NCBI RefSeq assembly: GCF_048403405.1
Contig: NZ_CP183129.1
DNA: 64,000 nucleotides
Reading direction: 5' to 3' (one strand)
Source of the DNA: Escherichia coli
GTDB taxonomy: Bacteria > Pseudomonadota > Gammaproteobacteria > Enterobacterales > Enterobacteriaceae
The notes below the pieces were generated by a model. That model was not told where the DNA came from and ran no database searches. It was given only the letters and a program-made list of their open reading frames with translations. Both the position numbers and the translations under genes were made by a program. The stretch's first letter is position 1, and every line of letters begins with the position of its first letter. This document shows, piece by piece, positions 35,934 through 38,900 of this stretch.

Positions 35934-38900
35934 ATGCAGGTCAGCAGAAGGCAGTTCTTTAAGATCTGCGCTGGCGGTATGGCAGGCACCACGGCAGCGG
36001 CACTGGGTTTTGCACCCAGCGTAGCACTCGCGGAAACCCGGCAGTATAAACTGCTGCGCACCCGCGAAACCCGTAATACCTGCACCTATTGTTCCGTAGG
36101 CTGTGGGCTGTTGATGTACAGCCTCGGTGACGGAGCAAAAAACGCCAAAGCATCTATCTTCCATATCGAAGGCGATCCGGATCACCCGGTCAACCGCGGT
36201 GCACTTTGTCCGAAAGGCGCTGGCCTGGTGGATTTCATCCACTCCGAAAGCCGTCTGAAGTTTCCGGAATACCGTGCGCCAGGTTCTGATAAATGGCAGC
36301 AAATCAGTTGGGAAGAGGCGTTTGATCGCATCGCCAAACTGATGAAAGAAGACCGCGATGCTAACTACATTGCGCAAAACGCCGAAGGCGTGACCGTTAA
36401 CCGCTGGCTCTCCACCGGGATGCTGTGTGCTTCCGCGTCGAGTAACGAAACCGGCTATTTAACGCAAAAATTCTCCCGCGCGCTGGGTATGCTCGCGGTC
36501 GACAACCAGGCGCGTGTCTGACACGGACCAACGGTAGCAAGTCTTGCTCCAACATTTGGTCGCGGTGCGATGACCAACCACTGGGTCGACATCAAGAACG
36601 CCAACCTCGTCGTGGTGATGGGCGGTAACGCCGCTGAAGCTCACCCGGTCGGGTTCCGCTGGGCGATGGAAGCCAAAATTCACAACGGCGCGAAGCTGAT
36701 TGTGATCGATCCTCGCTTTACGCGTACGGCGGCGGTGGCTGACTACTATGCCCCTATTCGTTCCGGTACTGACATTGCTTTCCTGTCAGGCGTATTGCTG
36801 TACCTGCTGAACAATGAAAAATTCAACCGCGAATACACCGAAGCCTATACCAACGCCAGCCTGATCGTGCGTGAGGATTACGGCTTTGAAGATGGCCTGT
36901 TCACCGGCTATGACGCGGAAAAACGCAAGTACGATAAATCCTCCTGGACTTACGAACTGGACGAAAACGGCTTCGCCAAACGCGATACCACGCTGCAACA
37001 TCCGCGCTGCGTGTGGAACTTGCTGAAACAGCACGTTTCCCGCTACACGCCAGATGTGGTTGAAAACATCTGCGGTACGCCAAAAGACGCGTTCCTGAAA
37101 GTCTGCGAATACATCGCCGAAACCAGTGCTCACGATAAAACAGCGTCGTTCCTCTACGCCCTCGGCTGGACGCAACACTCCATTGGTGCGCAAAACATTC
37201 GTACGATGGCGATGATCCAGCTGCTGCTCGGCAATATGGGGATGGCTGGCGGCGGCGTTAACGCCCTGCGCGGTCACTCCAATATTCAGGGGCTGACCGA
37301 CCTGGGGCTGCTGTCGCAGAGCCTGCCAGGTTACATGACGCTGCCAAGCGAGAAGCAGACCGATCTGCAAACCTACCTTGCCGCCAACACGCCGAAACCG
37401 CTGCTGGAAGGCCAGGTTAACTACTGGGGCAATTACCCGAAATTCTTCGTCTCCATGATGAAGGCCTTCTTTGGTGATAAAGCGACGGCAGAAAACAGCT
37501 GGGGCTTTGACTGGTTGCCGAAGTGGGATAAAGGCTACGACGTCCTGCAATACTTCGAGATGATGAAAGAGGGCAAAGTCAATGGCTATATCTGCCAGGG
37601 CTTTAACCCGGTTGCCTCATTCCCGAACAAAAACAAAGTGATCGGCTGTCTGTCGAAACTGAAGTTCCTCGTGACCATCGACCCGCTGAACACTGAAACC
37701 TCTAACTTCTGGCAGAACCACGGTGAACTGAACGAAGTTGACTCGTCGAAGATCCAGACCGAAGTGTTCCGTCTGCCATCGACCTGCTTCGCGGAAGAGA
37801 ACGGTTCAATCGTCAACTCTGGTCGCTGGTTGCAGTGGCACTGGAAAGGTGCGGACGCCCCGGGGATTGCGCTGACTGACGGCGAGATCCTCTCCGGTAT
37901 CTTCCTGCGCTTGCGCAAGATGTATGCCGAACAGGGTGGCGCGAACCCGGACCAGGTGCTGAACATGACCTGGAACTACGCCATTCCGCATGAGCCATCT
38001 TCAGAAGAAGTGGCGATGGAGAGTAACGGTAAGGCGCTGGCCGATATTACCGATCCGGCAACCGGTGCGGTTATCGTCAAGAAAGGCCAACAACTTAGCT
38101 CGTTCGCCCAACTGCGCGATGACGGTACAACCTCCTGTGGCTGCTGGATTTTCGCCGGTAGCTGGACGCCAGAGGGCAACCAGATGGCACGCCGTGATAA
38201 CGCCGATCCGTCTGGCCTCGGTAACACGCTGGGCTGGGCATGGGCATGGCCGCTTAACCGCCGTATTCTGTATAACCGCGCCTCCGCAGATCCGCAGGGT
38301 AACCCGTGGGATCCGAAGCGTCAGTTGCTGAAATGGGACGGCACTAAGTGGACCGGCTGGGATATTCCGGACTACAGCGCAGCACCTCCGGGTAGCGGCG
38401 TCGGGCCGTTTATCATGCAGCAGGAAGGCATGGGGCGTCTGTTTGCCCTCGATAAGATGGCGGAAGGTCCGTTCCCGGAACACTACGAGCCGTTTGAAAC
38501 GCCGCTGGGAACTAACCCGCTGCATCCAAACGTTATCTCGAACCCGGCTGCACGTATCTTTAAAGACGACGCCGAAGCATTGGGTAAAGCCGATAAGTTC
38601 CCGTATGTCGGAACCACCTATCGTCTGACCGAGCACTTCCACTACTGGACCAAACACGCGCTGTTGAACGCGATTTTGCAACCAGAGCAGTTTGTGGAAA
38701 TCGGTGAGTCGCTGGCGAATAAACTTGGCATTGCCCAGGGCGATACAGTGAAAGTCTCCTCCAACCGTGGCTATATCAAAGCCAAAGCGGTGGTGACCAA
38801 ACGTATTCGCACGCTGAAAGCGAACGGCAAAGATATCGATACCATCGGTATTCCGATTCACTGGGGCTATGAAGGTGTTGCGAAAAAAGGCTTTATTGCC

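Follow-up and report, generated by a model that had tools for sequence, protein, structure and literature searches.

The selenocysteine site of fdoG has belonged to textbook knowledge since the 1990s, and selenium-dependent readthrough of UGA is reportedly established for E. coli FDH-O, in work that is said to be that of Sawers in 1991 and of Abaibou in 1995. In all three formate dehydrogenases of E. coli, the catalytic subunit provides a selenocysteine ligand to bis-MGD (PMC6239281). The fdnG gene is a paralogue of fdoG that belongs to another operon, fdnGHI, and it is induced by nitrate and anaerobiosis, as opposed to the constitutive or aerobic expression of fdoG (PMC6239281, in line with general knowledge). 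The features expected of a bacterial SECIS are well defined. Numbering starts at the U of the UGA, the hairpin has a length of about 40 nt, the upper stem-loop is found 11 nt from the UGA and spans nucleotides 15–31, position 17 is a bulged U, G23 and U24 of the apical loop are the SelB contacts, and pairing in the lower stem makes only a modest contribution (PMC8659212).

In the DNA studied here, a window of 64,000 nucleotides from E. coli to which all positions refer, a TGA at position 36519 is almost certainly the canonical site of recoding to selenocysteine in fdoG, the E. coli gene that encodes the catalytic subunit of FDH-O. When 35934–38984 is translated as one frame, 1017 codons result; the TGA at 36519–36521, codon 196, is the only internal stop, and this whole-frame translation shows no frameshift. 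The list of open reading frames contains two entries in the same frame, 35934..36521 (195 aa) and 36570..38984 (804 aa); the first-pass annotation had attributed this division of fdoG to the single TGA only, which proved to be correct to the nucleotide. With a cysteine placed at position 196, the protein matches the TIGR01553 profile over its full length (residues 2–1015) with 1574.5 bits, against a cut-off of 814.2, and it possesses the Tat signal RRQFFK.

The nearest described relative is fdoG of strain K-12 (b3894), which shares the length of 3051 nt, the position of the UGA at codon 196 and the operon context, and in which the UGA and at least 57 downstream nucleotides are identical to those in the window. 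The two genes differ at 47 of 3051 nt (98.5% nucleotide identity); 45 of these differences are silent, none is located in the SECIS, and the proteins differ only by the substitutions I417V and A483T. Two amino acid changes against 47 nucleotide changes indicate that purifying selection acts on fdoG both before and after the TGA. The overall identity to fdnG of K-12 (b1474) is 75% at the nucleotide level and 77% at the protein level. The gene order fdhD<>fdoG-fdoH-fdoI-fdhE matches that of the fdo locus of K-12, both by synteny and by orthology, and the product of fdoI distinguishes FDH-O from FDH-N, with a higher score for the FDH-O type model NF007924 than for the FDH-N gamma model NF007558 (Table 1). 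Judged from these comparisons, the gene at 35934–38984 can be identified as fdoG and not fdnG.

Table 1 Positions of the fdoG recoding site, its SECIS element and the surrounding genes in the window
Feature	Position	Strand	Basis or remarks
fdhD, sulfurtransferase, divergently transcribed	34907..35740	-	TIGR00129, 340.5 bits; annotated fdhD
Ribosome-binding site AAGGAG	35922..35927	+	6 nt 5' of the fdoG ATG; direct reading
fdoG CDS, formate dehydrogenase-O alpha subunit, 1016 aa including Sec196	35934..38984	+	ATG start, terminal TAA
Rfam SECIS_3 (RF01989) match, 59 nt	36516..36574	+	84.3 bits (partly circular) against a gathering score of 63; E = 3.3e-19; model positions 1-59/59
UGA selenocysteine codon, codon 196 of fdoG	36519..36521	+	Direct reading; alignment with residue 196 of 1kqf_A
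Spacer of 11 nt between UGA and upper stem-loop, also 5' arm of lower stem	36522..36532	+	Direct reading
Upper stem-loop, putative SelB-binding element, GG-U-AGCAA-GUC-UUGCU-CC	36533..36550	+	Fold and covariation
Lower stem, 3' arm, pairing with 36521-36531	36556..36566	+	MFE structure; 84-86% of cells paired in orthologues among the matches listed
fdoH, beta Fe-S subunit	38997..39899	+	TIGR01582, 478.7 bits; annotated fdoH
fdoI, cytochrome b556 subunit	39896..40531	+	NF007924, 453.3 bits; NF007558, 243.6 bits
fdhE, accessory gene	40528..41457	+	NF002925, 604.1 bits

A 3.3-kb region of the window recurs with 100% identity in six RefSeq chromosomes of E. coli and occurs in 5425 of the 5426 complete genomes of the species. 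Over the 25-kb stretch 24000–48999, the same six strains, among them TUM14771 (NZ_CP128875.1), likewise show 100% identity to the window. Some further observations on the surroundings can be mentioned. A remnant of yiiG is found at 34176–34818 on the minus strand, from which about 470 bp of the K-12 gene, with its start and 5' part, are absent; it is annotated as frameshifted or partial in TUM14771. The annotation of the latter genome also has a transposase gene, located downstream of yiiE and just past the fdo-fdhE cluster (window position ~42586 onward; locus L001, 10887–11301). Rfam matches above the gathering score were obtained for the Hfq-binding sRNA STnc490 (19232–19355, minus strand, 146 bits), for naRNA4/CssrE (26217–26287, minus strand, 74 bits) and for ES036/CssrF (11385–11426, plus strand, 50 bits). 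The FdoG-1 5' UTR thermometer (RF02778) gave a sub-threshold match at 35765–35963 on the plus strand (32 bits, with the gathering score at 50; E = 9.7e-5), in which only the part with the ribosome-binding site and the start codon aligned well; the fold of 35870–35965 in the 5' UTR of fdoG is unremarkable (z = -0.20).

The assignment of the UGA as a selenocysteine codon is supported by a protein of known structure. In a PDB sequence search, the UGA residue of fdoG aligned with the X (selenocysteine) at position 196 of FdnG (1kqf_A), and the two proteins agree throughout the flanking motif ARV-U-HGPTVASLAPTFGRGAMTNHW. The TGA is located at codon 196 in both fdoG and fdnG of K-12, and at codon 140 in fdhF. 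The nucleotide after the UGA in fdoG is a C, and UGAC is a weak context for termination by RF2.

All features that describe a bacterial SECIS (PMC8659212) were found in fdoG by direct reading and folding. The spacer C4–C14 corresponds to 36522–36532 and thus has a length of 11 nt, with G15 at 36533. In the upper helix of the minimum free energy (MFE) fold, G15-G16 pair with C31-C32 and A18-A22 with U26-U30; U17, at 36535, is unpaired and bulges out between these two parts of the stem. The apical loop consists of G23-U24-C25 (36541–36543), which puts the nucleotides that correspond to the SelB contacts at 36541–36542. The first-pass annotation had proposed a SECIS hairpin directly 3' of the TGA, and the sequence that it quoted is found verbatim at 36522–36562. 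This proposal is upheld by the fold of 36521–36566, by the upper-helix covariation described below and by the SECIS_3 score of 84.3 bits, which is partly circular since the family can be expected to include E. coli-like fdnG and fdoG sequences. The SECIS_2 model (RF01988), the one in Rfam nearest to the fdhF type, reached only 28.1 bits where its gathering score is 70, so that the fdoG element does not belong to this subfamily. Based on these features, we regard the RNA that follows the UGA of fdoG as a bona fide bacterial SECIS.

It is useful to compare the element with the two other E. coli systems, as the first-pass annotation had suggested. The SECIS of fdnG, which is also of the SECIS_3 (RF01989) type, lies in a 71-nt stretch that is identical to that in fdoG and that includes Val195, the UGA and the entire hairpin. 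The SECIS of fdhF, which has been dissected experimentally, shows the same key features with the same spacing: a UGAC context, an 11-nt spacer (as also in fdnG) that starts with CACGG, GG and a bulged U at nucleotides 15–17, and G23 and U24 in the loop at equal distances from the UGA. On the other hand, the upper stem-loop of fdhF has 17 nt (UGCA-GGUC-UGCA) and that of fdoG 18 nt (AGCAA-GUC-UUGCU), where the fdoG element has one extra base pair and a 3-nt loop, and the sequences of the lower stems differ. Folding energy does not set the fdoG hairpin apart: with an MFE of -14.6 kcal/mol for 36521–36566 it does not exceed shuffled sequences in stability (z = -0.61; 59 of 200 shuffles fold as well or better). 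Since the proven fdhF SECIS is similar in this respect, at -14.9 kcal/mol, folding energy is a poor test for a SECIS, and covariation was used instead.

For this purpose the genomes of 100,044 species were scanned with a degenerate pattern in which third codon positions were free, which gave at least 120 loci. Among the matches listed, 67 distinct 60-nt sequences from Proteobacteria and other phyla could be aligned without indels. One match, from Streptomyces (L062), was spurious and was left out of the alignment; its peptide departs after VUHGPTVA, and it is not a formate dehydrogenase site. In the 67 distinct sequences among the matches listed, 99.4% of the cells of the upper helix are paired. 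In the same set of matches listed, pair 21-27 occurs as A-U (47), C-G (18) or G-C (2) and pair 18-30 as G-C (52), A-U (9) or G-U (6), neither of them ever being unpaired in the 67 sequences. Double, compensatory changes at these two pairs amount to 29 cells in total among the matches listed. Pairs 21-27 and 18-30 join the third bases of the codons for Ala202/Leu204 and Val201/Ala205, respectively; all four are synonymous third codon positions, so that the changes are purely RNA-driven. None of 500 shuffles equalled the observed covariation score or the percentage of paired cells, and in a control where the 3' partners were slid by 1–3 columns, pairing dropped to 26–57%. Alignment columns 20, 26 and 27, which represent U17, G23 and U24, are invariant in the 68 aligned sequences among the matches listed.

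Besides covariation, two sequence tests that are not circular, a comparison of the paralogues and an analysis of codon choice, agree with constraint on the RNA. The longest run of identity between fdoG and fdnG is the 71-nt stretch at 36516–36586, twice as long as the next longest, and the UGA and the whole hairpin are inside it. Among degenerate codons for identical residues, fdoG and fdnG use the same codon in 59% of the cases, and the probability that all 16 degenerate codons within 195–211 would be the same by chance is about 2e-4. The 20 nt of identity beyond the hairpin (36567–36586) were dismissed as a separate feature: they hold four degenerate codons, for which the chance probability, computed from the per-codon background of 0.59, is about 0.12. 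With respect to codon choice, the hairpin contains codons that are among the rarest in fdoG (GGA 3%, GTA 6%, AGT 7%, CTT 7%, ACA 5%, GCT 12%), as would be expected if base pairing overrides codon preference.

The conservation extends beyond the species. The 100 nt around the UGA are exact in 5424 of 5433 matching E. coli records, and the exact 62-mer 36516–36577 is, among the matches listed, also found in both paralogues of Enterobacter cloacae, as well as in Citrobacter, Klebsiella, Escherichia albertii, Yersinia, Photorhabdus and Providencia. It is thus shared by several families of the Enterobacterales, in both fdoG and fdnG (loci L021, L022, L025, L028, L029, L036, L041, L056, L068 and others). 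About 16 synonymous sites in this 62-mer appear frozen at the level of divergence of the order Enterobacterales, among the matches listed.

The lower stem is less constrained than the upper helix, with 84–86% of the cells paired in orthologues among the matches listed, which fits the modest role ascribed to it (PMC8659212). Its register also varies. The Enterobacterales, including the window, have an A9-U42 pair and a bulged G44, and most other Proteobacteria among the matches listed have C9-G41, as in the Rfam SECIS_3 consensus. When fdoG is written in the Rfam register, positions 5-45 and 9-41 become A-C and A-G, respectively, and pairing calls for a shift of 1 nt together with one bulge. 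The attempt to describe every orthologue by one lower-stem register was abandoned, as the E. coli MFE register gives 84% and the Rfam register 86% pairing and the register depends on the lineage. It might be thought that the freezing of the SECIS in both paralogues of the Enterobacterales and the 1-nt shift in the lower stem result from an adjustment of the recoding efficiency in this lineage, from a second function of the RNA or from repeated gene conversion that involves fdoG and fdnG. We consider this unlikely when set against plain purifying selection on a hairpin that binds SelB.

A different view of the same conservation would be that the UGA is mainly read in a SECIS-independent manner, by near-cognate tRNA-Trp or by Cys-tRNA(Sec), and that the RNA is conserved only through constraint on the active-site peptide. 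Low-level SECIS-independent readthrough of UGA is known in E. coli, and the peptide HGPTVASLAPTFGRGAMT is itself highly conserved, so that the nucleotide conservation could be largely protein-driven. However, synonymous third positions covary in such a way that pairs are kept (GCA...CTT, GCC...CTG, GCG...CTC) and rare codons are retained in the hairpin, and neither of these is explained by constraint on the protein. The SelB determinants U17, G23 and U24 are, moreover, present at their canonical spacing, and we regard mainly SECIS-independent reading as very improbable. That the TGA is a true nonsense mutation in a pseudogene or split gene, with an incidental hairpin, is less probable still and effectively refuted, for even though mechanical ORF calling yields pieces of 195 and 804 aa and the hairpin energy is no better than that of shuffles, 5424 of 5433 E. 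coli records have an exact copy of the TGA with the 100 nt that flank it, homologous TGA codons are present in fdoG, fdnG and fdhF of K-12, the codon aligns with Sec196 of the 1kqf crystal structure, the 804 downstream codons are open and have hardly changed, two amino acid against 47 nucleotide changes from K-12 point to purifying selection on the whole frame, the upper helix shows covariation, and the element matches SECIS_3. An extra stop or frameshift in fdoG, or a missing hairpin, had been named by the first-pass annotation as arguments that would speak against recoding, and neither was encountered.

Recoding at this site further depends on the selenocysteine machinery, for which the first-pass annotation had called for a search. 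Within the window there are no tRNA genes and there is no similarity to selAB, selC or selD. In TUM14771, the strain identical over 25 kb, selA, selB, tRNA-Sec and selD are all annotated as intact, and selAB, selC and selD of K-12 are present in 5425, 5424 and 5425, respectively, of the 5426 complete E. coli genomes. With TUM14771 and the E. coli genomes as proxies, selA, selB, selC and selD can be expected to be present in the source genome.

The recoding event at fdoG can then be envisaged as follows. When a ribosome arrives at UGA196 of the fdoG mRNA, the SECIS 3' of this codon would present its upper stem-loop, with the bulged U17 and with G23 and U24 in the loop, at a distance of 11 nt. 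This upper stem-loop would be bound by SelB-GTP with its Sec-tRNA(Sec), which is encoded by selC and charged via SelA and SelD, and SelB would compete with RF2 to bring selenocysteine into the A site. Translation would go on to give the protein of 1016 residues, in which Sec196 is expected to ligate the Mo of bis-MGD. The binding of SelB and the actual insertion of selenocysteine at UGA196 of fdoG are in this scheme predicted from established knowledge of the E. coli pathway, to which the present analysis adds what it demonstrates for this locus: the intact frame, the sequence and structure of the SECIS and the constraint on it, the alignment of selenocysteine with a solved homologue, and the sel genes of the lineage.

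The first-pass annotation had also warned that automated annotation could miscall the gene as a pseudogene or split gene. This holds for naive ORF calling, which does split fdoG, and not for RefSeq/PGAP, where the CDS is intact (3051 nt, WP_012602895.1, to which the CDS in the window is 100% identical) and bears no pseudogene flag. In every genome listed, the RefSeq/PGAP label at the fdo locus is "fdnG: formate dehydrogenase-N subunit alpha", despite the adjoining fdoH, fdoI and fdhE; this is a systematic artefact of gene naming, probably inherited from the title of TIGR01553.

Taken as a whole, the recoding site of fdoG was already known, and both its observation here and its interpretation are confirmed. 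To selenocysteine recoding as such nothing new is added, and the result matters only as a sanity check on annotation: the two open reading frames do not represent a pseudogene, and naive ORF calling would wrongly divide the gene. A functional FDH-O is predicted for this strain. In addition, the locus offers a clean and self-contained example of synonymous codon positions that covary to keep a hairpin in the mRNA.
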